Positions 25,157 to 47,519 of a stretch of 64,000 nt of DNA are shown piece by piece. This DNA comes from a virus. Under the pieces are notes generated by a model, which saw only the letters and a program-made list of their open reading frames with translations, was not told the origin of the DNA and did not search any database. The stretch lies in the IMG/VR virus record IMGVR_UViG_3300045988_133735. One strand, written 5' to 3'. Position numbers and translations under genes: made by a program. Position 1 is the first letter of the stretch. Every line of letters begins with the position of its first letter.

Positions 25157-25801
25157 GAATTTCCAGCAATTTCCTACATACATAATGCGAGTCCAGATGA
25201 TATTATAAACGAAGTTTTCGCAGAGGGAACTCCGGTAGTGTGAAAACGCACCGCCGGGGTTTAATGCGGCTACTGGTTCTGCAGAACTGGTACTGGTCCC
25301 AAGCCCAGAAATGCAATCGCAAGTGGGGCACATAGCGTCACGATCGAAGCGGTAGCACAAACAGAAGGGCGCTCCACTGATCCTAATGAAATTGACACTG
25401 ATTTGATGTGATGGCCACACAAATATAATCAGAAGACTAAAGTAGATTAGGCAGTTCCACATTAAGTGAGCGAAACTAAACGAAAGGAGGGTTTATAGCT
25501 TGAATTGTAAAATCAGTTACCGCTCGCTAGGAGTGGTCTTTGGTGCAAGGGTCGCGTCTTACTCCAATGAGAAAATTTTCATGGGATGGCGATACAAACT
25601 GTTTTGACGTTTAACTGAAATTTCCAAATTAAATAGAATTGACGTTGCAAGTGCTCGTTGCATCCGAGCATAAGTTCGCATCATACATACGAGTTTAGCG
25701 GTAGTCGCAAATAGGCGTAATCGACCTATAAGGTTCGCTATAATGCGGGGCTGGGTGATTCCCGAACGGACAAGTTAAACGTATGTTAAGGATAAGAAAC
25801 C

Positions 25802-30629: not shown

Positions 30630-30862
30630 TCGCTTCCAGAATCAATTCTTAGCCTGAAACGTCCTTATACGATAAGGGTTTCTCAGACATATAGTGATTC
30701 TGTAATGAAACTGCTATATCAGCACCAAATATGTGTCTACACCCCTTATTGCATAAGGGGGAAATGGCATAATATGAAACGAGGTGATATCGTGAAGGCA
30801 TTCGATAACACATCTTAGGCGAATACACTCGTGGCAATCACCGCAAGACAGTTATCGTAAAA

Positions 30863-31186
30863 CATCGAGATGAATACGTATTTCAGTTACGGCTGCCGGT
30901 TGACCGACAGTTACGCAAAGGTAGGATGAGGTATCCCGGGGCGGAGGGGCCTGCTTTCAGCCTCTGAACGAGTCGACGGAGTCAGACCCAGAACCACTGA
31001 ACGCCGAGCAAGGCGATTTGGTTGCAAAACGCCCGAAACTCAACAAAGTAGCTCATCAAAGTTCGACAGAAGCTCATCAATTGAACTCAATCAACGCGAG
31101 TTGAACGGGTACTGATCAACTTCGGGACCTTTTTAAGATCAATCTTGAGAGCTTAAAAGAGCAACAACATCATTTAGATCTCGATG
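30863..31186 (+). ncRNA. retron-like structured element X1 (orphan paralogue of the element upstream of the RT)
   Basis: Closed by the 9-nt inverted repeat CATCGAGAT (30863-30871) / ATCTCGATG (31178-31186). Contains GAATAC, the 18-nt hairpin CTGCCGGTTGACCGACAG (30893-30910), and CATTTAGA before the right repeat. Confidence 0.4.
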
Positions 31187-31334
31187 AATAATAATGCATA
31201 AATATGCAGAAAGGACGAATAATATACAATGATTTATGCATAGCTAATTGAGGCGCTGCCTAACGCCTATTATAAATAAGGTAGTCGACAAAAATGACAC
31301 AAAAAATATATTTAAGTTCTGTTTATAATGACAA

Positions 31335-32966: not shown

Positions 32967-33044
32967 CCGGGTGTAGCGAAGCTGGTATCGCGCCAAATTT
33001 GGGATTTGGAGATTTCGCCCGTTCAAGTCGGGTCACTCGGACCA
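32967..33044 (+). tRNA. tRNA-Pro (TGG)
   Basis: CCGGGTG TA GCGA-AGCTGGTA-TCGC G CCAAA-TTTGGGA-TTTGG (7-nt variable) GCCCG-TTCAAGT-CGGGT CACTCGG A CCA. G37 is present. Confidence 0.7.
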
Positions 33045-33157
33045 TGGTGCAGGGTCTTTCCTTTCTACCTGTGCCTATTGTGTGTATAAAACGGTTTCCA
33101 TTAGACGAAACCGCGTGGCTGAAAATGCCGAGCAGGTACGATAATCCTGCCTTATAT

Positions 33158-33544
33158 GGGCCCGAAAGGTTTTCGACAGGGCTATGAAAATTCACAATTC
33201 GCAGGTCGGCCATCACCTTACGAGGCAAAAAACAATAAACGCTAACTACAATAGTTATCGCTGCGCGGCTTGATGCCGTGCCCAAAACAGCATCCTGATA
33301 GGCAGGTAAATGTTTGATGGTTCAAAGAATAAATCCCGGAACCCGATGTAAACGGTAATAAACACCGGCGTTCTCGGACGCTAAAACCGAGTGGTGGAGT
33401 GATGTAACAAACCGTTACGTCCCTGGGTTTGCTGTGTTGGCGGCATGAATTCCTTTCAAAAATTCTAAATGCTAACTATTGCGTAAGAAGATTGTGTACG
33501 AGTAATAGTTCTGGACGTGGGTTCGAATCCCACCGGGTCCACCA
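33158..33544 (+). ncRNA. ssrA: tmRNA
   Basis: The 5' end is GGGCCCGAAAGGTTTTCGACAGGG. The 3' end is GGACGTGGGTTCGAATCCCACCGGGTCCACCA. The acceptor has a G3-U70 pair. The internal tag frame is ..AAA ACA ATA AAC GCT AAC TAC AAT AGT TAT CGC TGC GCG GCT TGA (33229-33273). Confidence 0.85.
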
Positions 33545-33907
33545 GTGGCGCAAGCCGCAAAGCTAGGTTCGATGCGACAGCGTAGTGTAGTGCGAGGTCG
33601 CTGGGGTGGCGCAATTCCACCGTGGATGCAATGCATTCATAACGCTTTGACCGAAATTGTGCGAACAGACTGCGACGGGGTAGCTCCTCGTGGAGTGAGG
33701 GTCTGGTGACAACATGAGTAGGCGATAGGATGACCTGCGAAAGTGGTCTAGTCAGTTTGGTGCCCGGACTGGCGGAGAGTGGATTTAAAAGGGCAGCCTT
33801 TGAGGATGGACTCTGGGGAAGACAAAATGTACCTAGTTGTATCTGCTGACGCGGTTAAGTCGCATTGCACATCGCCGATGCTGTTACATGGTTAAATCCT
33901 CCTCTCT

Positions 33908-33983
33908 GTGGCGTTAGTTCAGTTGGCAGAACACTTGGCTCATAACCGAGTAGTCGTGGGTTCAAAGCCCTCACGCCGCACCA
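33908..33983 (+). tRNA. tRNA-Met or tRNA-Ile2 (CAT), elongator type
   Basis: GTGGCGT TA GTTC-AGTTGGCA-GAAC A CTTGG-CTCATAA-CCGAG TAGTC GTGGG-TTCAAAG-CCCTC ACGCCGC A CCA. Confidence 0.8.
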
Positions 33984-36598: not shown

Positions 36599-36681
36599 GT
36601 TTCGGTGCTGGAATCGGCAGACAGGGGAGTCTCAAAAACTTCTGCGAAAGCATGTGGGTTCAAGTCCCATCCGAAACACCA
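36599..36681 (+). tRNA. tRNA-Leu (CAA), class II
   Basis: GTTTCGG TG CTG-GAATCGGCAGA-CAG, GGAGT-CTCAAAA-ACTTC, variable arm TGC-GAAA-GCA, GTGGG-TTCAAGT-CCCAT, CCGAAAC A CCA. Confidence 0.8.
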
Positions 36682-36804
36682 TGGGTGAGTTGCGTCGCCC
36701 AAAAATCTCCTTTTCCTCACAAATGCTTAGTGGCTCATGAGTTCCAGACATGAATCACCGTGACTGAACAAGTCGTAGCAGGTACGCAATCCTGTTTTTG
36801 ATAA

Positions 36805-36890
36805 GTCGGTATGGTGGAATAGGCGAGACACGTCTGCTTTAGGGACAGATGCTTAAGTGCATGTGAGTTCAAATCTCACTACCGACACCA
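36805..36890 (+). tRNA. tRNA-Leu (TAG), class II
   Basis: GTCGGTA TG GTG-GAATAGGCGAGA-CAC, TCTGC-TTTAGGG-ACAGA (one C-A mismatch), variable arm ATGC-TTAAGT-GCAT, GTGAG-TTCAAAT-CTCAC, TACCGAC A CCA. Confidence 0.7.
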
Positions 36891-36948
36891 ATCTCGCATG
36901 GGTAGGATCTTTAGCGGTCAGATCCGGCCGCGCCTGTGCGAGATACCA
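36891..36948 (+). ncRNA. tRNA-minihelix-like element ending in ACCA
   Basis: ATCTCGCA ... TGCGAGAT forms an 8-bp closing stem around the GGATC-TTTAGCGGTCA-GATCC hairpin, followed by ACCA. It abuts the CCA end of tRNA-Leu(TAG). Confidence 0.3.
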
Positions 36949-37040
36949 CCCCCCTGTGGGGAATGTTAAATTTTTCCATGTACGTTATTCTCGGCTCGCT
37001 CGAAAGAGTGCAGCGTGCCTTTGTAAGCCGAGTATTTTAT

Positions 37041-37109
37041 GTGGCTGTAGCTCAGATGGTAGAGCAGCAAGCTAACTGCGCGCCGTTGGTTCAAGTCCAA
37101 CCAGTCACT
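37041..37109 (+). tRNA. aberrant tRNA-like gene (3-bp anticodon stem; loop AGCTAAC, possibly CUA)
   Basis: Canonical acceptor (GTGGCTG/CAGTCAC), D arm (GCTC-AGATGGTA-GAGC) and T arm (GTTGG-TTCAAGT-CCAAC). Only 19 nt separate the D and T arms, where 22-23 are expected. Confidence 0.45.
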
Positions 37110-37228
37110 CCGATGCCCGCTTATAGGGTCTCATTCCTCCTATTCGGGCTTTACCTCTTTTCTTCCTTGTTATTCCCGGCTCCATGGCGAATGCTGTGGC
37201 AATAAGGCGTAGTAAGCTGGGTTTATAT

Positions 37229-37303
37229 GCAGCGGTCGTACATCGGCTAGTATATCAGCCTTCCAAGCTGAGGAGGTGGGTTCGACTCCCATTCGCTGCT
37301 CCA
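37229..37303 (+). tRNA. tRNA-Gly (TCC)
   Basis: GCAGCGG TC GTAC-ATCGGCTA-GTAT A TCAGC-CTTCCAA-GCTGA GGAG GTGGG-TTCGACT-CCCAT TCGCTGC T CCA. Confidence 0.8.
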
Positions 37304-37611
37304 TCGTGTGCGACGGTTTGAGACTCCTACATGCAAATCCAGCCGGGTAAGTCCGTCCACAACCGGTGTAGGTAGACATCTTTACTCATTAGGTCTCTAA
37401 CTAAATGAGGAATAGAAAATCAGTTGTTCCAGCTAGATCGGGGATTGGCCGTTCATTGGCAAACGACAGGCATCACACCGGTAAATGATGCTGAGCCAAA
37501 TAGGAAGGGGAATAAGGTGCAAGTCGAGTAGCTGTCGGACGAATACTCTTCAGGTAGCCAGTAAACTGGAACGTAAAACGAATGTTGGCTGTTTCTGATT
37601 TTCTTTTATAT

Positions 37612-37698
37612 GCTACCATGATGTAACTGGCAGGCATGAGGGACTTAAAATCCCTTGCTGGAAACAGCGTGCGGGTTCAAGTCCCGCTGGTAGCACCA
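37612..37698 (+). tRNA. tRNA-Leu (TAA), class II
   Basis: GCTACCA TG ATG-TAACTGGCAGG-CAT G AGGGA-CTTAAAA-TCCCT, variable arm GCTG-GAAA-CAGC, GCGGG-TTCAAGT-CCCGC TGGTAGC A CCA. Confidence 0.8.
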
Positions 37699-40280: not shown

Positions 40281-41798
40281 ATGGCTTTCACAGCTTATTC
40301 CAGCAAGATCGGTTCGAGAGATTGCGACGAAGCATATCCGTTGATTCTGAATTGCGACAATAGCAATCTCAACGATAATGTGATGTTGTCTGTACTGCGC
40401 GTACTGATCAATGATGACCGTATCAAGCATTCTATTTCGGGAGGGCATCGCATTCAGTCAATTATTGATTGCCAACAGTTCTATATGGGCGACGACGAAA
40501 AGTTCACTAAGGACATGTTCGTTCATGAAGATAACGCTTTCAATCAGATGAAATTTGGCATCATGTTTCAGACGATCGACGATAAGAAAGCAGACGCCAT
40601 TATTTCTGAGTTCAAGAAGTACAATGCGGATTACGAAGCTGCCGGTTGGAAGATCATGGATGTCGCAGCTAAGTACATCGATAAGAATGGCAACGTCTAT
40701 GTATATCAGAATGAAAAGAAGCAGGGTGTTGTCGTTGTTTGTGCTAAGAAGAATCTGATTCAGGCCATGCACATGGCGGCGAGTTGTTTGCCAAACCTGA
40801 TGCCGTGGTTTTTCGCTGATCAGCCGCTGACTGATGATGAGAAGGCGATGCTGCGTACTCTTTATGATCAGGACAACGAAGCTTTCGGCAAATACATGGA
40901 GAAGGCATACGAGACCGGCGATTTCTATGGTAAGAAGTTGCGTGGCGCTCTGAAGGGATTTTGCAAGAAGGATTATGCAAACGAAATTACCCGGCAGGAG
41001 CGATATATTCGTGAAATCCAAGATGAAATCGAAAGAAAATATAACGATATCCGTGAGAGAAATAAAAATCTTGAAGAAGCTCAATTTAAACTCACTATGA
41101 TCATGGACCGTGCTTGCTGCACTGAGGATGACGAAGCTGCAATTGTTAATTTCCTGAAGCGCTGCAAGACGCTGGTTTATCTTGACTCCAATAGTGATCG
41201 AATCTCTATTGGTTATGTTGGCACGCTAAACGATTGTGATGAGGGCGAGTTCCGCACTTGTGTTGAGAAAAAGGCAAATAGTCGAAGCTACATTTTTCAG
41301 CGTTCGCCGTATGACACGGAACTTACGAAAGATTTCTTTGTGTCAATTTGGAAGACCCATCGGTTCGCTATTCGCACCTACTGTGAATGGCGACTGTATT
41401 CCAGCTGCAAGGTTGAAGCAATTCGTGGTTCTGATATGCAAGGTCGCTCTGATTTGATGAAGGATCGTATTCGTCAGCCCCATATCGATCGGCATGCGTG
41501 CTATAGCGGTTATCGAGAGATGCTCAATGCGCTTAGTGTAAAACACGATTACATTGGCGTCCTGACTACGATTATTGGTTCAAGCGCATCTATCAACTGG
41601 AAGGATGGCACCGTTGTAAGCGACCTCATGTACGATTTGTTTGACGAATCCTATATCAAAACTCGTAAGTGTATCGAGGATAACGCGGGTAATCTGTACA
41701 CGGTGGCAGAAGTATTTGATATTCTCAAGAACGAAAAGGACGCAGCAGCAACAGCAGAAGCAGTAAAGAAGGAGGTCGCTAAAGATGAAGCCCATTAA
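40281..41798 (+). CDS. large cassette protein, possible E2-like C-terminal region
   Basis: 505 aa between the Ubl candidate and JAB. The C-terminal QPHIDRHACYSGY resembles an HPN..C E2 active-site context (weak). Confidence 0.3.
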   Translation: MAFTAYSSKIGSRDCDEAYPLILNCDNSNLNDNVMLSVLRVLINDDRIKHSISGGHRIQSIIDCQQFYMGDDEKFTKDMFVHEDNAFNQMKFGIMFQTIDDKKADAIISEFKKYNADYEAAGWKIMDVAAKYIDKNGNVYVYQNEKKQGVVVVCAKKNLIQAMHMAASCLPNLMPWFFADQPLTDDEKAMLRTLYDQDNEAFGKYMEKAYETGDFYGKKLRGALKGFCKKDYANEITRQERYIREIQDEIERKYNDIRERNKNLEEAQFKLTMIMDRACCTEDDEAAIVNFLKRCKTLVYLDSNSDRISIGYVGTLNDCDEGEFRTCVEKKANSRSYIFQRSPYDTELTKDFFVSIWKTHRFAIRTYCEWRLYSSCKVEAIRGSDMQGRSDLMKDRIRQPHIDRHACYSGYREMLNALSVKHDYIGVLTTIIGSSASINWKDGTVVSDLMYDLFDESYIKTRKCIEDNAGNLYTVAEVFDILKNEKDAAATAEAVKKEVAKDEAH

Positions 41799-42681
41799 TA
41801 TCACGGAGCAGGTTGTAGCAGATATGGCACGTGAATTTGTTCAGGAGCTGTATAAGACCGGTAGGGTTAAGACGGATTCTTTCTCATACAAGAAGAATTT
41901 TGCGTCTGTTAAAAAGGATGCTGTCGAGGTGAATTTCACCTATGAAGCGTATTCTCAGATGTTTGCGTTGATTGATCACTTCGATTGTGAGGTTGCATGG
42001 CGCGGCATTGTGAATCGTATCGATAAGACGCATTTTCAGATTACCAAGATTCTGCTGTATCCTCAGACTGTGACTGGTACCACAGTGGACACCGATCAGG
42101 AAGAATTTTCAAAGTGGTTTCAGGCGCTGCCTGTTGAAACGATTCGCAACCTGAGATTTCAGGGACACAGCCATGTCGATTTCGGTGTAACGCCGAGCAG
42201 TCGCGATATGGAGGATCAGTGGCGATTCATTGACGGACTCAAGCCGACGAGTTATCAGATTTTTATGATTTGGAACAAGAAGCGTCAGTATAACGTTCGC
42301 GTCATTGATCTGGCCGACAATGTCATCTATGAGGGAGCCGATGTCAAGGTTACTGTTGGAGATTTTGACTCGACTCGATTTCTCGAGGATGCAGACAAAA
42401 CGGTTCGAAAGCGCCCTGTATATGTCGCAAGCACAGTCGCAAATTACGGAGCTTATGGAGCAGGCACCTATTATGGTAAAGCAGTTACGCCGCAAAAAAC
42501 GTACCCGCAAACAGTTACCACGCAAACGCCAGTGCCGCAAATCAAGACGGTAACTGGCGCAGCGGCTCCGAAAGTCAAGGAAGTGTCTGAGACTCGATAT
42601 CCATTGGTCAATCATTACAAGGAGAATCCAGAAGATCTTGATACGTGCTGGAATTCCAGCTGTTTTCCGTATGACAATTAA
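41785..42681 (+). CDS. JAB/JAMM (MPN+) metalloprotease
   Basis: 298 aa with the exact JAMM pattern H-S-H-x7-S-x2-D (GHSHVDFGVTPSSRD) and an upstream Glu (CEVAWRG). Confidence 0.7.
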   Translation: MKPINITEQVVADMAREFVQELYKTGRVKTDSFSYKKNFASVKKDAVEVNFTYEAYSQMFALIDHFDCEVAWRGIVNRIDKTHFQITKILLYPQTVTGTTVDTDQEEFSKWFQALPVETIRNLRFQGHSHVDFGVTPSSRDMEDQWRFIDGLKPTSYQIFMIWNKKRQYNVRVIDLADNVIYEGADVKVTVGDFDSTRFLEDADKTVRKRPVYVASTVANYGAYGAGTYYGKAVTPQKTYPQTVTTQTPVPQIKTVTGAAAPKVKEVSETRYPLVNHYKENPEDLDTCWNSSCFPYDN

Positions 42682-42696
42682 AGAAAGGACTACAAA

Positions 42697-43371
42697 ATGA
42701 ATCTGAGTAAGCTTGAAATGGTATTCAACCCCGATGATATCAGCGGCCAGATCCACATTGTTGGTTGTGGTTCGGTTGGCTCCACTGTGGCGGAACTTCT
42801 CGCACGGTATGGTCTGAAGAATTTCACGCTGTGGGATATGGACGAGGTCGAAAGTAAGAATATCGTTAACCAGATGTTCTTCGCCAACAATATTGAAGCT
42901 CCAAAAGTCGAGGCGGTTCGCGATATTATCTGCGCCATCAATCCTGATGCCAAAGATGAAATCGTTCTGAAGCCGAATGGTTGGCAGGGCGAGATGATTC
43001 GCGGTTATGTATTCCTCGCGGTCGACAATATCGAAATTCGCAAGCAGTTCATGGAAGCGAACAAGTACAACCCGAACATCAAGGGTGTGTTTGATATCCG
43101 CACTGGGTTCCATGATGCACAATGCTGGGCAGCAGATTGGAGTAAGGACAAAGACCGAGAGAATTTATGGAATTCTATGAATTTCTCTCATGAAGATGCA
43201 CAGGCTGGCACTCCGGTTTCCGCATGTGGTATCGTTCAGGGTCTCGCCCCGACTGTTCGTTTCGTGTGTTGTTTGGCGGTTACGAACTTTATCAATTTCG
43301 CGACTAATATCGCACCTTTGAAGAAAATGATCGTTGCAAATCCGTACACTTTTAACGTTACGGCTGCATAA
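42697..43371 (+). CDS. ThiF/MoeB/E1-like adenylyltransferase (short form)
   Basis: 224 aa with a Rossmann motif IVGCGSVGS and DMDEVESKNIVNQ (DxDxVxxSNxxRQ-like). Confidence 0.7.
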   Translation: MNLSKLEMVFNPDDISGQIHIVGCGSVGSTVAELLARYGLKNFTLWDMDEVESKNIVNQMFFANNIEAPKVEAVRDIICAINPDAKDEIVLKPNGWQGEMIRGYVFLAVDNIEIRKQFMEANKYNPNIKGVFDIRTGFHDAQCWAADWSKDKDRENLWNSMNFSHEDAQAGTPVSACGIVQGLAPTVRFVCCLAVTNFINFATNIAPLKKMIVANPYTFNVTAA

Positions 43372-43385
43372 AGAATAAATAAAAA

Positions 43386-43650
43386 AAATCGTGATGAATT
43401 ACTGTTGAAACATACAGTCCTGCCGGATGACCGACAGGTTCGTAAAGGTAAGATCATATACATCCCACCGGGAAACCGAGGCGTGTGATCGCATGCGACG
43501 TACGTCGACTCCGCAGGTATGCTGATTCGCTGATCGAAATAATCAACGTAGGTACGTACCGGCAATGAGCTCAAAACGCAAACTCGCAGGAAGGACGTCC
43601 CGTCGAAGGCACCTCCCTGAGCATACAAACCACCATTTAGATCACGATTT
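43386..43650 (+). ncRNA. candidate retron msr-msd type ncRNA (element X2)
   Basis: The 265-nt gene-free segment directly 5' of the RT is closed by a perfect 10-nt inverted repeat, AAATCGTGAT (43386-43395) / ATCACGATTT (43641-43650). It contains the hairpin CTGCCGGATGACCGACAG (43419-43436). Confidence 0.5.
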
Positions 43651-43665
43651 AGAAGAGGTAAACAT

Positions 43666-44901
43666 ATGTACGTTACTTATTGGAATCCGCCGAGAACAAG
43701 GCAGATTACGTTTGATGAAATCCTTAGTGGAGTCGTTGACGTGAACCAGTTGAAATATGCTGGCGATGAAACTTCTACTCGAACTGTACAGCGTAATGGG
43801 TTGAATGATCGTCTCGTAGCAATTACAAACGTTACCAATATGATTGCACGGCTCGCGGAATTCAATCAGAAATACGCTCGTCTTGAAGCAGTACGTGACC
43901 TGTCGACGTATTACTATCACTTTGAAATCCCTAAGAAGACCGGCGGCTTTCGTCCAATTGATGCACCGACTAATGAATTGAGCGATGCGTTGGTTGAGTT
44001 GCGGACGCTGTTAAAAAGTTTCATGATTGCTGATTATCACACGGCAGCACACGCATATATCAACGGGCGCGGCACTCTAAGTGCAATTAAAAAGCATCAG
44101 GCAGGGCACAGATATACAGTAAAAGATCGTGAGACTGGGAAAGAAAAGATCGTCACCTATGAAAATAACTGGGCTGTCAAGTTTGACTTTCATGGATTCT
44201 TCCCGAGCTCCACTCCTGAGTTTATCTACGGTATGTTCAGAAAGATTTATCCGTTTTCTCTCATTATGAAGGATCGAAATGGATACAACCAGCTGACTAA
44301 AGCGATGCGTCTGTGCTTCTTGAACGGCGGTCTTCCGCAGGGAACACCAATCAGTCCGTGGATCACGAACGTTATGATGATCCCGTTTGATTATATGTTA
44401 AACAAGAAGCTTTCTTACAAATATACCATGAAAGACGGCATTTCTCGCACTTTTACATACACCAGATATGCAGACGATATCACCATCAGCTGCTATTTGA
44501 GTTTTGACCCGATGGAAATGCAGGATATTATCAAAGAGACGTTGGATGCAATCAATGCTCCGTTTACTTTGAATGAAGAAAAAACGCATTATGGTAATCG
44601 GCATTCGAGCGAAAACTGGATGCTCGGTCTGATGTGGAACGCCAATAACGATATCACAGTCGGATGGCGCAATTTTAAGGACTTCAAGAAGATGGCATCT
44701 AATTACATCGTCTGCAAGAAAGAAGGAAAAACGTGGGATCTTGAAGACCTGCAGCAGTTTAATGGCAGGTTGAATTACTACCGTATGGTAGAAAAAGAAG
44801 CGGTCGACACAGTGATCTCTCGGTACAACGAAAAATATCGTGTTGATATGATGGCAATGCTCAAAGCTGACTTAAAACCAAAAGAAGGAGTTGTTTTCTA
44901 A
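43666..44901 (+). CDS. reverse transcriptase, retron/retron-like type
   Basis: 411 aa with the RT motifs IPKKTGGFRPIDAP, KFDFHGFFPSS, GGLPQGTPISPWITN and YTRYADDITISC, plus the thumb-like WMLGLMWN. Confidence 0.8.
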   Translation: MYVTYWNPPRTRQITFDEILSGVVDVNQLKYAGDETSTRTVQRNGLNDRLVAITNVTNMIARLAEFNQKYARLEAVRDLSTYYYHFEIPKKTGGFRPIDAPTNELSDALVELRTLLKSFMIADYHTAAHAYINGRGTLSAIKKHQAGHRYTVKDRETGKEKIVTYENNWAVKFDFHGFFPSSTPEFIYGMFRKIYPFSLIMKDRNGYNQLTKAMRLCFLNGGLPQGTPISPWITNVMMIPFDYMLNKKLSYKYTMKDGISRTFTYTRYADDITISCYLSFDPMEMQDIIKETLDAINAPFTLNEEKTHYGNRHSSENWMLGLMWNANNDITVGWRNFKDFKKMASNYIVCKKEGKTWDLEDLQQFNGRLNYYRMVEKEAVDTVISRYNEKYRVDMMAMLKADLKPKEGVVF

Positions 44902-45239
44902 TGATTGAAATGATGTGTAGAGATGGCGGCACTCCAGTTGAATTGCTCGATCAAGCGGCAAGTGTCGTAGAGGAATCCATCGGGTGTCCAGTTGACCTGT
45001 TGGATATCGACGACCACAGAGCAATGGTCTATTGGGGGCCGTCTGATGTTGCAAGCGCAATCAAGGAGCTTGGCATCAAAGAAATCGATGCAGAGGATAT
45101 GAGCTTATGTGCAGATCTCTTGTGCGATTTTGAAGTGAATATTCATCAGGCAATGCTTGAGGCCGGACACGACGCTCTACAGAGCTGTTTGGAATGTCTT
45201 GTTGATGAACTGCGAAAACAGGACAAAGAATCCAAGTAA
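44901..45239 (+). CDS. small acidic protein translationally coupled to the RT
   Basis: 112 aa with a TAATG overlap with the RT stop. Confidence 0.5.
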   Translation: MIEMMCRDGGTPVELLDQAASVVEESIGCPVDLLDIDDHRAMVYWGPSDVASAIKELGIKEIDAEDMSLCADLLCDFEVNIHQAMLEAGHDALQSCLECLVDELRKQDKESK

Positions 45240-45250
45240 TTATATATTGT

Positions 45251-45580
45251 AATCTCTTTTGAATATCGGGCGTTTTACGTCGCGAGCTGCCGGATGACCG
45301 ACAGTTATGAAGAATACCATAGCACGCTCATACGGGCTCCATGGGCTGCCTGAGTTGGCAGCCTCGCCCTCCTGAGCTATGGATCAAATTAGTTCGCAAG
45401 GGCGGAGTCTCCGTTCTGCAGCCTAATCCCAGCAGAGCTGGAGATCGCGGCTGCAATCGCTGCGACTCATTGGCCATCAGAACATTTACTCGACAATGCT
45501 TCCGGGATCAAAGATCCCTCCAAATTATCTCGCAAATGTTCTTCTAGCCAAACTGTTACTCACAATTTAGAAAAGAGATT
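45251..45580 (+). ncRNA. retron-like structured element X3 (paralogue)
   Basis: Closed by the 10-nt inverted repeat AATCTCTTTT (45251-45260) / AAAAGAGATT (45571-45580). Contains GAATATC, the hairpin CTGCCGGATGACCGACAG (45287-45304), and AATTTAGA before the right repeat. Confidence 0.4.
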
Positions 45581-45584
45581 GATT

Positions 45585-45845
45585 ATGGATTACAAATATA
45601 AAATTGGACAAAAAGTACGAATTCGGAAAGACTTGACAGCCGGCGCAGAATATCCAATGCAAAGCGGAAGTCGTTGCGGTTGGGGCCCGGGAGTAGCTGA
45701 GGATATGGAAAAATACCGAGGGCAGATTATGACAATTGATTATATTAAAGGCTATTATACCCTCTGCGAAGATAATAGATCGTGGTCGTGGAGCGACACA
45801 ATGTTCGAAACACAAAAGCGGCTTACATGTAAAAGTCTTTTGTAA
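45585..45845 (+). CDS. small beta-rich paralogue with C-terminal tail (CKSLL)
   Basis: MDYKYKIGQKVRIRKDL...WSWSDTMFE...QKRLTCKSLL-stop. Confidence 0.6.
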   Translation: MDYKYKIGQKVRIRKDLTAGAEYPMQSGSRCGWGPGVAEDMEKYRGQIMTIDYIKGYYTLCEDNRSWSWSDTMFETQKRLTCKSLL

Positions 45846-45859
45846 AGGAGTGAATTTTA

Positions 45860-46675
45860 ATGGCAGAAACCGCAAAGAAAGTGGCACAAAAAACCATTCT
45901 TTTCCCAGTTGAAGATCGGCCTGCAAAACTCGTCGTTACAGAGGACGATATTGAACGAATTATTCAGCAGGCCGTTAAAAGTGCCACTGCAACGAAAAAA
46001 GCACGGAAACCTCGTCGGACGGATAGTCTTTATCTCAAGGATGGGCGCAGAAAGCCAACCCCGGCAGATCCCATCAAGTCAAAGGAAGATTTCAAGAAGA
46101 TTGTTGATTACCTTGGGTCTAACGGACCTGAAGAAATCGCGCTTAGAAATAAAACGATGTTCATTCTCGGTTGTTCAATTGGTGTTCGATGCGGCGATTT
46201 GTTGAAGCTTAAAACGGCTGATGTTTATTATGAGAACGCTCATGTAAAAGATCATGTTGAACTGATCGAGCAGAAGACCGGCAAGCGAAACGTGTGTAAG
46301 ATTTCTCATATGGCAAAAGAAGCTTTAAGAGAATATTATCAGGCAATTGGTTTTCGAATTGACCGTGACACGCTTCTTTTTCAGAGCAAGAAAGGTGGAC
46401 AGCTTAACGTTAGATCGGTGAGCAACCTTTTGAAGAAAGCTGGTAAGGCGTGTGGTTTAAATATTGAGTTATCTACTCATAGTATGCGTAAAACTTATGC
46501 CATGGCAGCATTACAAAGCGCTGAGGGTACAGTTGATGGAGCGAACATCTTGAATATTCTCCAAACAAAATTTAATCACAGCGACCAGCGTATTACGATG
46601 AGATATATCAAAATGGATCAAGAAAAACTTGATGAAGTCTCTGAAAATGTTTCTGACTGGTTTGAAGGAGAATGA
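45860..46675 (+). CDS. tyrosine recombinase / phage integrase family
   Basis: 271 aa with Arg in GVRCGDL, HxxR in THSMRKT, and the catalytic Tyr context ITMRYIK. Confidence 0.7.
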   Translation: MAETAKKVAQKTILFPVEDRPAKLVVTEDDIERIIQQAVKSATATKKARKPRRTDSLYLKDGRRKPTPADPIKSKEDFKKIVDYLGSNGPEEIALRNKTMFILGCSIGVRCGDLLKLKTADVYYENAHVKDHVELIEQKTGKRNVCKISHMAKEALREYYQAIGFRIDRDTLLFQSKKGGQLNVRSVSNLLKKAGKACGLNIELSTHSMRKTYAMAALQSAEGTVDGANILNILQTKFNHSDQRITMRYIKMDQEKLDEVSENVSDWFEGE

Positions 46676-46678
46676 ACT

Positions 46679-46951
46679 ATGAACTATAAGTTTAAACCCG
46701 GAGATAAAGTAACAGTTAGAAAAGATTTATCAGATCGTAAAATATACAAGATGTTGTCAGGAGAAACTCCATATGATGACATTATTGCTATTCATTCTAT
46801 GGAAAATCTTCGAGGGAAACAAGTAACAATCGAGAGTTATGATTGTTGTGGGAATGTAATGTGTTACAGGGTAAAAGAAAGCTCCAGATATTGGACAGAT
46901 GAAATGTTCGAAGAATCTAAAAAACCGTTTACATGTAAAAGTTTATTATGA
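46679..46951 (+). CDS. small beta-rich paralogue with C-terminal tail (CKSLL)
   Basis: MNYKFKPGDKVTVRKDL...YWTDEMFE...KKPFTCKSLL-stop. Confidence 0.6.
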   Translation: MNYKFKPGDKVTVRKDLSDRKIYKMLSGETPYDDIIAIHSMENLRGKQVTIESYDCCGNVMCYRVKESSRYWTDEMFEESKKPFTCKSLL

Positions 46952-46967: not shown

Positions 46968-47252
46968 GTGTCGAAAAGCAAGTACAAATATAAGAATGAA
47001 GAAGCAGTTCGCGTCAGGGAAGATCTTCAATCTGGAACAGTTTATTACATGAGATCCGGTCCAGAACCGGATACCAATGGTGTGGAGACATCATGGAGTG
47101 GACGTGGGCAAGTAGGTTATCGTGGACAAATTGTACATATTTCTCACAAGGCAAACGGTCGATACAAAATTCTTGAAGACGGAAAAACATATTATTACAC
47201 AGATGAAATGTTTGATCGTCCAAAGAACTTAATTTGCAAAAGTTTGTTGTGA
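46968..47252 (+). CDS. small beta-rich paralogue with C-terminal tail (CKSLL)
   Basis: GTG start. ..AVRVREDL...YYTDEMFD..PKNLICKSLL-stop. Confidence 0.6.
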   Translation: MSKSKYKYKNEEAVRVREDLQSGTVYYMRSGPEPDTNGVETSWSGRGQVGYRGQIVHISHKANGRYKILEDGKTYYYTDEMFDRPKNLICKSLL

Positions 47253-47261
47253 GGGTTTGAA

Positions 47262-47519
47262 ATGGAATACAAGTATAAACCCGGCGACAAAGTTAGAGTC
47301 CGCCCAGATCTTCATGAGTCCGGAAGTTACAAAATGGTAAGTGGAACAAGACGAGGATTTAGCCCCGGAGTTAATAGTGCTATGTGTAGTTACGCTGGTA
47401 AGATTGCAACGGTTTCACATTGCTACATTACATATGTTTTAGAAGGATTCGGTAATTGGTCGTGGAGTGATGAAATGCTTGAGCCGGCTAAACCGCTTTG
47501 TTGCAAATCATTGTTGTGA
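47262..47519 (+). CDS. small beta-rich paralogue with C-terminal tail (CKSLL)
   Basis: MEYKYKPGDKVRVRPDL...WSWSDEMLE..AKPLCCKSLL-stop. Confidence 0.6.
   Translation: MEYKYKPGDKVRVRPDLHESGSYKMVSGTRRGFSPGVNSAMCSYAGKIATVSHCYITYVLEGFGNWSWSDEMLEPAKPLCCKSLL

Follow-up and report, generated by a model that had tools for sequence, protein, structure and literature searches.

Three elements around one reverse transcriptase

The DNA analysed here, a stretch of 64,000 nucleotides from a virus (IMG/VR record IMGVR_UViG_3300045988_133735; hereafter the window), carries a gene for a reverse transcriptase (RT) and three non-coding elements of common design, X1, X2 and X3. It raises the question of whether a single enzyme has several RNA templates or merely lies beside a family of structured RNAs. 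A first-pass annotation of the sequence had left both possibilities open. Our analysis indicates that X1 to X3 are probably retron-type template RNAs (msr-msd), each complete in itself, and that one retron-clade RT (43666-44901) probably serves all three. This reading starts from what was observed, namely the anatomy of the units, their conservation and covariation, and their association with the RT in both position and strand.

All three elements lie on the plus strand, which is also the strand of the RT. X1 (30863-31186) is a complete retron-type ncRNA unit with the RT 12.5 kb downstream. It consists of a left arm, a1, at 30863-30871 (CATCGAGAT), a G at 30872, the stem-loops SL1 (30877-30891) and SL2 (30892-30911, including the 18-nt hairpin CTGCCGGTTGACCGACAG at 30893-30910), a structured core (approximately 30925-31170), an AG at 31176-31177, and the right arm, a2, at 31178-31186. 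X2 (43386-43650) is situated directly 5' of the RT gene, its end being 15 nt from the RT start, and comprises a1 at 43386-43395 (AAATCGTGAT), G at 43396, SL1 at 43401-43418, SL2 (the 18-nt hairpin) at 43420-43437, a long hairpin domain at about 43438-43622, AG at 43639-43640 and a2 at 43641-43650. X3 (45251-45580) follows the RT and a 112-aa open reading frame, with a1 at 45251-45260 (AATCTCTTTT), G at 45261, SL1 at about 45266-45284, SL2 at 45286-45305 (18-nt hairpin at 45287-45304), a structured core, AG at 45569-45570 and a2 at 45571-45580. The order of parts is the same in each: a1, an unpaired G followed by AAU(A/U)(A/U)C, SL1 of variable sequence, the 18-nt SL2 of the form CTGCCGG(A/T)TGACCGACAG, a variable core, CA..AUUUAG, and an a2 complementary to a1. 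In the units a motif AUNNAG abuts a2.

The first-pass annotation had given these positions and this shared architecture, and every element that it listed was found in the sequence as described. It had also called the 18-nt hairpin nearly invariant; with up to 3 mismatches allowed, this 18-mer occurred exactly three times in the 64-kb window, always on the plus strand, against 0.02 times in shuffled sequence. The compensatory change that it had proposed between the closing repeats of X1 and X2 is a true double change, from A:U to U:A, and the closing pair of X3, as it had pointed out, is unrelated to that of X1 and X2 while its arms are complementary to each other. The first 67 nt of X1 and X2 were 73% identical; beyond this 5' similarity, the cores of X1 to X3 resembled neither one another nor anything else in the window. 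The covariance model R1, which represents the 5' domain, was run on the window with filters off; it scored X1 at 39.6 bits (E 1e-6), X2 at 32.5 and X3 at 20.5, and recovered no further copies. A site at 47256 was considered as a fourth unit and rejected as a false positive of R1, since a small coding gene starts there and an a2 partner is lacking. None of the three elements matched Rfam, either at curated thresholds or at permissive E-values. When folded without constraints, X1 closed a1 on a2 and formed both SL1 and SL2 (z = -2.8), X2 gave three stems within the closing loop, and the core of X3 had a z-score of -5.3.

The flanks of the elements showed several local features. Within the a2 arm of X3 is a sequence (AAGAGA, 45573-45578) that is likely to be the ribosome-binding site for the gene that follows, with its ATG at 45585; this overlap is a trait of X3, not general in the family. 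A scan of X1 to X3 for promoters and terminators found a sigma-70-like site only in front of X3, ending at 45248, just 5' of its a1, and this is not decisive. Immediately 5' of the X1 a1, at 30840-30863, there is a short motif, TATCGTAA(A/G)AC, which is partly a1-like and varies from one to three copies between relatives (upstream of X1 in L014 and L031). A similar sequence, ATCGTAAAT, lies upstream of X2-type units in the relatives of group B. Such motifs could be a promoter element or the remnant of a unit duplication. On the 3' side of X1, the interval 31188-31260 has a 10-nt inverted repeat (ATGCATAAAT ... ATTTATGCAT) and a GC-rich hairpin (AGGCG...CGCCT), which together may end the X1 transcript; they were not called by a simple terminator scan.

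The reverse transcriptase

The RT (43666-44901, plus strand) is a protein of 411 aa with a YADD active site. It matched Pfam RVT_1 at 1.6e-13, PADLOC models of retron RTs at E-values down to 2e-37, and the NCBIfam model retron_St85_RT at 2.4e-43, with a score of 148 bits that is under the cut-off of 235; indeed, it did not reach the curated cut-off for any named retron family. A profile built from 18 members of the RT family was searched against PDB, and the best match was retron Ec83 (3.6e-31), with retron Ec86 at 2e-17 and retrons Ec78, St85-type, Ec67 and Kva2 at E-values between those two. After the retrons came a group II intron RT (4e-13), a DRT9-type RT (1e-8), Drt2 (2e-5) and Drt3a (2e-4). 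In all three libraries (PADLOC, NCBIfam and PDB) the enzyme was closest to retron RTs over its full length. Because its best matches are retron RTs and its scores fall below the family cut-offs, the enzyme was called, on sequence grounds, a divergent branch of the retron clade.

A VTG after the YADD is a signature of retron RTs, and ordinary phage-borne retron RTs have EVTG, IITG or EITG. At the aligned position the present family has NW[MILC]LG[LV]M, in which only the G is kept. The active site itself was YADD in 17 of the 18 aligned family members and YSDD in the other one. Some weaker RT matches in phage records were followed up as well, and turned out to be ordinary retrons.

Units in related phages

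The RT family is large and was found in contigs of gut phages of approximately 100-150 kb and in contigs binned into metagenome-assembled genomes (MAGs). The loci compared comprised about 15 near-identical phage contigs of approximately 145 kb, about 45 loci with RT identity of around 65%, about 20 with RT identity near 45%, and 76 from MAG contigs with RT identity of 36-45%, mostly labelled Clostridia, which probably represent phage contigs that were binned together with those of the host. An inverted repeat of 8-14 nt enclosed 210-440 nt of sequence in most of the related loci that were inspected, ending 20-40 nt before the RT start, with a G after the left arm and usually an AG before the right arm. 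A unit in the position of X2, 5' of the RT, is found in most of these loci, down to 37% RT identity. The X1 locus is also present in close relatives. The sequence of the arms is specific to each clade while their complementarity is kept (ATCGTGAT, GTTTGTGTT, CTTGTAAT, CTAATAAA, TTGCAAT, TTGTAAC and others), and the equivalent of X3 in the relatives with 65% RT identity has a different, again complementary, a1/a2 pair (AAATCATTTT / AAAATGATTT).

With the covariance model (E <= 0.1), 169 matches were found in the 76 genome loci and 47 in 33 further sources (the window and 32 other loci). A search of related phages and metagenomes with such a model had been suggested in the first-pass annotation, and it returned units near RTs with a uniform orientation, all 216 being on the strand of the RT. 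At least one unit was present in 67 of the 76 genome loci and at least two in 55; the mode was two to three and the maximum seven. By position, 50 units were directly upstream of the RT, 81 were within 2.5 kb downstream, and 26 were a few kilobases away. This clustering around the RT holds where the RT shares only about 37-45% identity with that of the window. One locus (L201) has seven units of approximately 300 nt each in tandem, head to tail, the first beginning 28 nt after the RT stop and each having its own a1 and a2, with G-U pairs in some of the helices. In two loci (L151 and L167) the gene order is rearranged and the units still adjoin the RT. Within one genome the closing helices of the units are often, although not always, different.

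The arrangement in the window, with one unit upstream of the RT, one downstream and one 12.5 kb away, is therefore typical of the family. The first-pass annotation had rightly remarked that a retron of standard layout would not have several units for one RT, yet across this RT family several units per RT are the rule, given that 55 of 76 loci have at least two. Of its two suggestions, multiple templates for one RT or a merely coincidental neighbour, these counts, the clustering of units around the RT and the common strand of all 216 exclude mere coincidence and favour the former, with the reservation that reverse transcription itself is inferred.

Covariation and RNA structure

The covariance model was derived from the aligned 5' domains of 43 diverse units, all 43 of which have the G that follows a1. 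In SL1 and SL2, 80.7% of cells were paired and 166 cells had changed on both sides, giving a covariation score of 0.679; shuffled alignments gave 0.247, none of 500 reaching the observed value, and slid partners scored at most 0.21.

The closing helix was examined in 146 model matches from distant relatives, by scanning the downstream sequence for bases complementary to those that precede the conserved G, with the upstream sequence as a control. Complementarity over at least 8 bp was detected downstream in 115 of the 146 matches, compared with 22 in the upstream control. The helices involved 44 different a1 7-mers and contained 65 G-U pairs, which can form on the plus strand only, for example ATTGTGAT / ATCACGAT in L048. 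A terminal helix under selection, which had been put forward on the strength of the three window copies, is well supported by these figures. The base before a2 was G in 121 of 131 units (NG), and AG was found in 91. The units had a median length of 295 nt.

Minimum-energy folding without constraints closed a1 on a2 in 109 of 134 units, and the recurrent fold had SL1, SL2 and one long domain filling the rest, which is the layout of a retron msr plus an msd hairpin. In the cores of 40 X2-type units of group B, 95.4% of the pairing in core helices was kept, G-U pairs were frequent, and 17 pairs showed double changes compared with 4.5 in shuffles. The double changes and frequent G-U pairs indicate that the structure has been selected in plus-strand RNA. 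Among close relatives, the lengths of the units vary by amounts that are not multiples of 3, which argues against coding.

Variation of the cores

The core of X2 was more variable than its surroundings. Identity to the window ranged from 71 to 96% where the RT was 94-98% identical, and comparison of the X2 core (43456-43625) with that of L035-L041 revealed two forms, approximately 71% identical, in phages whose RT genes are 94-98% identical. The X1 core also occurs in two forms; the X3 core does not, and is as conserved as its neighbours, so that hypervariability of the cores as a general trait holds only in part. No similarity to the cores that might indicate a target was found in the window or in GenBank phages. 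Patterns in which A was replaced by N, as expected of a diversity-generating retroelement (DGR), retrieved nothing but the element itself: when each A of the X2 core was turned to N, the pattern matched the X2 locus alone, once in each related contig of 113-145 kb.

Proposed mechanism and comparison with retrons

Transcription of the units, priming at the G, the extent of the cDNA and the biological role are all inferred, from the anatomy described above and from the affinity of the RT to retron RTs. In each transcript, a1 would pair with a2, and this pairing would place the invariant unpaired G beside the conserved AG that precedes a2. The RT would then recognise SL1 and SL2, as the msr-like part, and use the 2'-OH of the invariant G after a1 as its primer. 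The enzyme would go on to copy the neighbouring structured domain of approximately 200 nt, in part or in full, into a single-stranded DNA still linked to RNA. The phage would in this way obtain three different msDNA-like molecules from one enzyme, and its relatives from one to seven. To our knowledge, a template of about 200 nt exceeds any known msDNA, and for that reason it may be that only part of the domain is copied.

The canonical retrons (Ec86/Eco1, Ec83, Ec78/Eco7 and St85/Sen2) have the enzymes closest to the RT of the window, and the likeness extends to the RNA. In both, the ncRNA is 5' of the RT and on its strand, is bounded by the inverted repeats a1 and a2, has an unpaired G at the inner end of a1 with an opposite G beside a2, and continues with small msr-type hairpins and then a hairpin-like template. 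The branching G of Ec86 has the same geometry, being unpaired at the inner end of a1 and facing a G beside a2. The differences are also considerable. Canonical retrons have one ncRNA per RT, whereas there are three here and up to seven in tandem in relatives; their template is shorter than the approximately 200 nt seen here; they are tripartite, with an adjacent effector, while here none was recognised (no PADLOC effector was found next to the RT) and the neighbours encode E1-like and JAB-like proteins and an unknown protein of 505 aa; their RTs carry the VTG signature and the present RT does not; and they occur in bacterial defence islands, not in large gut phages. Counting against a retron reading are the score of the RT below all cut-offs, the NWxLG[LV]M in place of xVTG/ITG, the lack of a recognised adjacent effector, the length of the template domain, and the detection of a sigma-70-like promoter only in front of X3.

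Retrons are known as one-RNA, one-enzyme systems and as a bacterial weapon against phages. In the present case, the owner of the retron is the phage, and one enzyme apparently serves several different templates. A search of the literature for natural multi-ncRNA retrons, or for retrons linked to ThiF, found only a preprint on the UG27 system, considered below, and engineered arrays, so that a phage-borne retron-clade RT with multiple autonomous units, and natural retron-clade arrays in general, appear to be unreported in the literature that was found. The engineered arrays ('multitrons', PMC10370050) resemble the natural ones in having tandem msr-msd units at one locus that are read independently by one retron RT, and differ in being man-made from Ec86 with an identical repeated msr, while here the closing helices are often different. 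The natural units, with closing helices of their own and templates of approximately 200 nt, are possible scaffolds for multiplexed or longer retron DNA in genome editing.

The most likely role of the units, itself only inferred, is in phage-host or inter-phage conflict, because the number of units per RT varies among related loci and the X2 core takes two forms in near-identical phages. A wider proposal is possible and no more than tentative. It holds that these loci represent a distinct and widespread clade of phage retrons, which make several long msDNAs (up to approximately 200 nt) from msr-msd arrays, work together with a conserved module of the E1-like, JAB-like and 505-aa proteins, use the sequence or shape of the msDNA to set counter-defence or inter-phage specificity, and are either independent of the UG27 system or ancestral to it.

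Alternative explanations

The closest published analogue in concept is UG27, a group of RTs described from gut phages together with a putative ncRNA (Mestre et al. 2022, PMC9226505). UG27 loci have variable arrays of units of 135-167 nt, each templating a cDNA hairpin of 50-100 nt; the cDNA requires the RT, which is of class 2 UG/Abi and has a YSDD active site, along with two proteins without domains, its role is unknown, and the units have motifs AUC-N7-UANAG and UUYA bracketing a central hairpin, as well as a pseudoknot (bioRxiv 10.64898/2026.09.22.753630, September 2026, Minerva preprint). Membership of the present locus in that system, although unlikely, deserves consideration, since the two agree in concept and in setting: in gut phages of Bacillota and Bacteroidota, one RT is accompanied by an array of units that are diverse in sequence and conserved in structure, with extra units in neighbouring intergenic regions (bioRxiv 10.64898/2026.09.22.753630). 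The number of units is likewise variable, the cores lack complementarity to phage or host, and the role is equally unknown. Moreover, UG27 RTs also match the retron-type CDD domain, and YSDD was seen in one of the 18 aligned RTs of the present family. Against this, the window RT has YADD and is retron-like, its profile reaching retron RTs at 1e-31 to 1e-17 and DRT9, Drt2 and Drt3a only at 1e-8 to 2e-4, or 10-25 orders of magnitude closer to the retrons; this comparison is indirect, having been made without a UG27 profile. The units are longer (250-330 nt, and 295 nt at the median, compared with 135-167 nt), carry hairpins of the msr type and, at the closing helix, an invariant G, and lack the UG27 motifs, no AUC-N7-UANAG being present in the window units or in L201. 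The neighbouring proteins have a recognisable ThiF domain and a JAB fold, where the UG27 accessory proteins have no detectable domain. The UG27 arrays do demonstrate that RTs outside the retron clade use arrayed templates, with another manner of initiation, and retron-style priming should therefore not be presumed here. If the retron-type reading is correct, this would be the second gut-phage RT with a library of templates, and two such libraries suggest that phages make some general use of structured single-stranded DNA that has yet to be explained.

Three other explanations dispense with retron-type templates altogether. The units might be structured RNAs that are not reverse transcribed, such as protein sponges, regulators of neighbouring genes or processing signals, with the RT no more than a syntenic neighbour. 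This cannot be excluded, since covariation and G-U pairs prove an RNA structure on the plus strand and not cDNA synthesis, the a2 of X3 covers the ribosome-binding site of the following gene, and all of the loci come from related phages with a conserved gene order. It is nevertheless improbable, as it leaves unexplained the feature-for-feature match to a retron msr-msd, including the invariant G and the opposite G, and the fact that units follow the RT through rearrangement (L151 and L167) and that arrays begin right after the RT stop. A variable insert between short inverted repeats, with a tyrosine recombinase gene nearby (45860-46675), might equally suggest that the repeats act as DNA, being ends of miniature transposable elements, recombination sites or operators. 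Such a role is very hard to reconcile with arms that differ between copies in one genome, and so could not all be recognised by one transposase or recombinase, with 65 G-U pairs that would be A-C mismatches on the other strand, with the single orientation of 216 out of 216 copies relative to the RT, and with internal hairpins that covary; in addition, no target-site duplications were seen at X1 to X3. Finally, several templates for one RT and cores that vary between strains are reminiscent of a DGR, in which the cores would be template repeats for rewriting a target gene elsewhere in the phage. This idea is barely tenable: the cores have no similar sequence elsewhere in the 64-kb window, in related contigs (113-145 kb) the A-to-N pattern of the X2 core finds only the X2 locus, the RT does not belong to the DGR type, nothing like an Avd gene was recognised, and strains differ at bases other than adenine as well. 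Retron-type templates for the neighbouring RT remain the best explanation of X1 to X3.

Neighbouring genes

The order of genes around the RT (505-aa protein, p298, E1-like protein, unit, RT, unit or units) was kept in relatives down to 37% RT identity. As all of these loci come from related phages, synteny alone is no proof of a functional link. The gene found most consistently beside the RT or its units, at 74 of 83 related loci, encodes a ThiF/E1-like adenylyltransferase of 224 aa (42697-43371, plus strand; Pfam ThiF, 6e-21), the PDB matches of which were UBA5, TcdA, MoeB and MccB. Upstream of it is p298 (41785-42681, plus strand), a protein of 298 aa identified by motif and AlphaFold model as similar to JAMM/MPN (JAB) metalloproteases; the motif E...HSH-x7-S-xx-D was invariant in 28 homologues, and the model matched Rpn11 (E 8e-9), CSN5 and archaeal JAMM1. 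Synteny of p298 was seen at 66 loci. Next to it is p505 (40281-41798, plus strand), 505 aa long, of unknown fold and syntenic in 54 loci. No family or PDB match was found for p505, and its model (pLDDT 84.5) matched only one uncharacterised phage protein in BFVD. The trio of p505, JAB-fold and ThiF/E1-like genes (40281-43371) adjoins the RT in almost all relatives, and resembles a module for ubiquitin-like conjugation and deconjugation, without an E2 or Ubl being recognised.

On the other side, the 112-aa frame taken from the list of open reading frames (44901-45239, plus strand) has a start that overlaps the RT stop (ATGA). It has no match to a known domain or family, and by tblastn it is present in closer relatives only (groups A and B). 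A tyrosine recombinase of 271 aa, belonging to the phage integrase family (45860-46675, plus strand), is encoded just 3' of X3, and in 17 related loci a homologue was found no more than 10 kb from the RT. The same region has four genes for paralogous proteins of 85-94 aa (phrog_7488-like, beginning M-D/E-Y-K-Y-K), at 45585-45845, 46679-46951, 46968-47252 and 47262-47519. The first of these directly follows X3, and its allele is 78% identical among phages in which the neighbouring genes are 94-97% identical.

Several other RNA genes were identified in the window. A type-P5 twister ribozyme is located at 25219-25308 (plus strand), with a score of 47.1 bits against an Rfam gathering score of 37.6. 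A phage-encoded tmRNA (96 bits) is found at 33158-33544, and seven tRNA genes lie between X1 and the RT module, in the stretches 32967-33980 and 36599-37695 of the plus strand.
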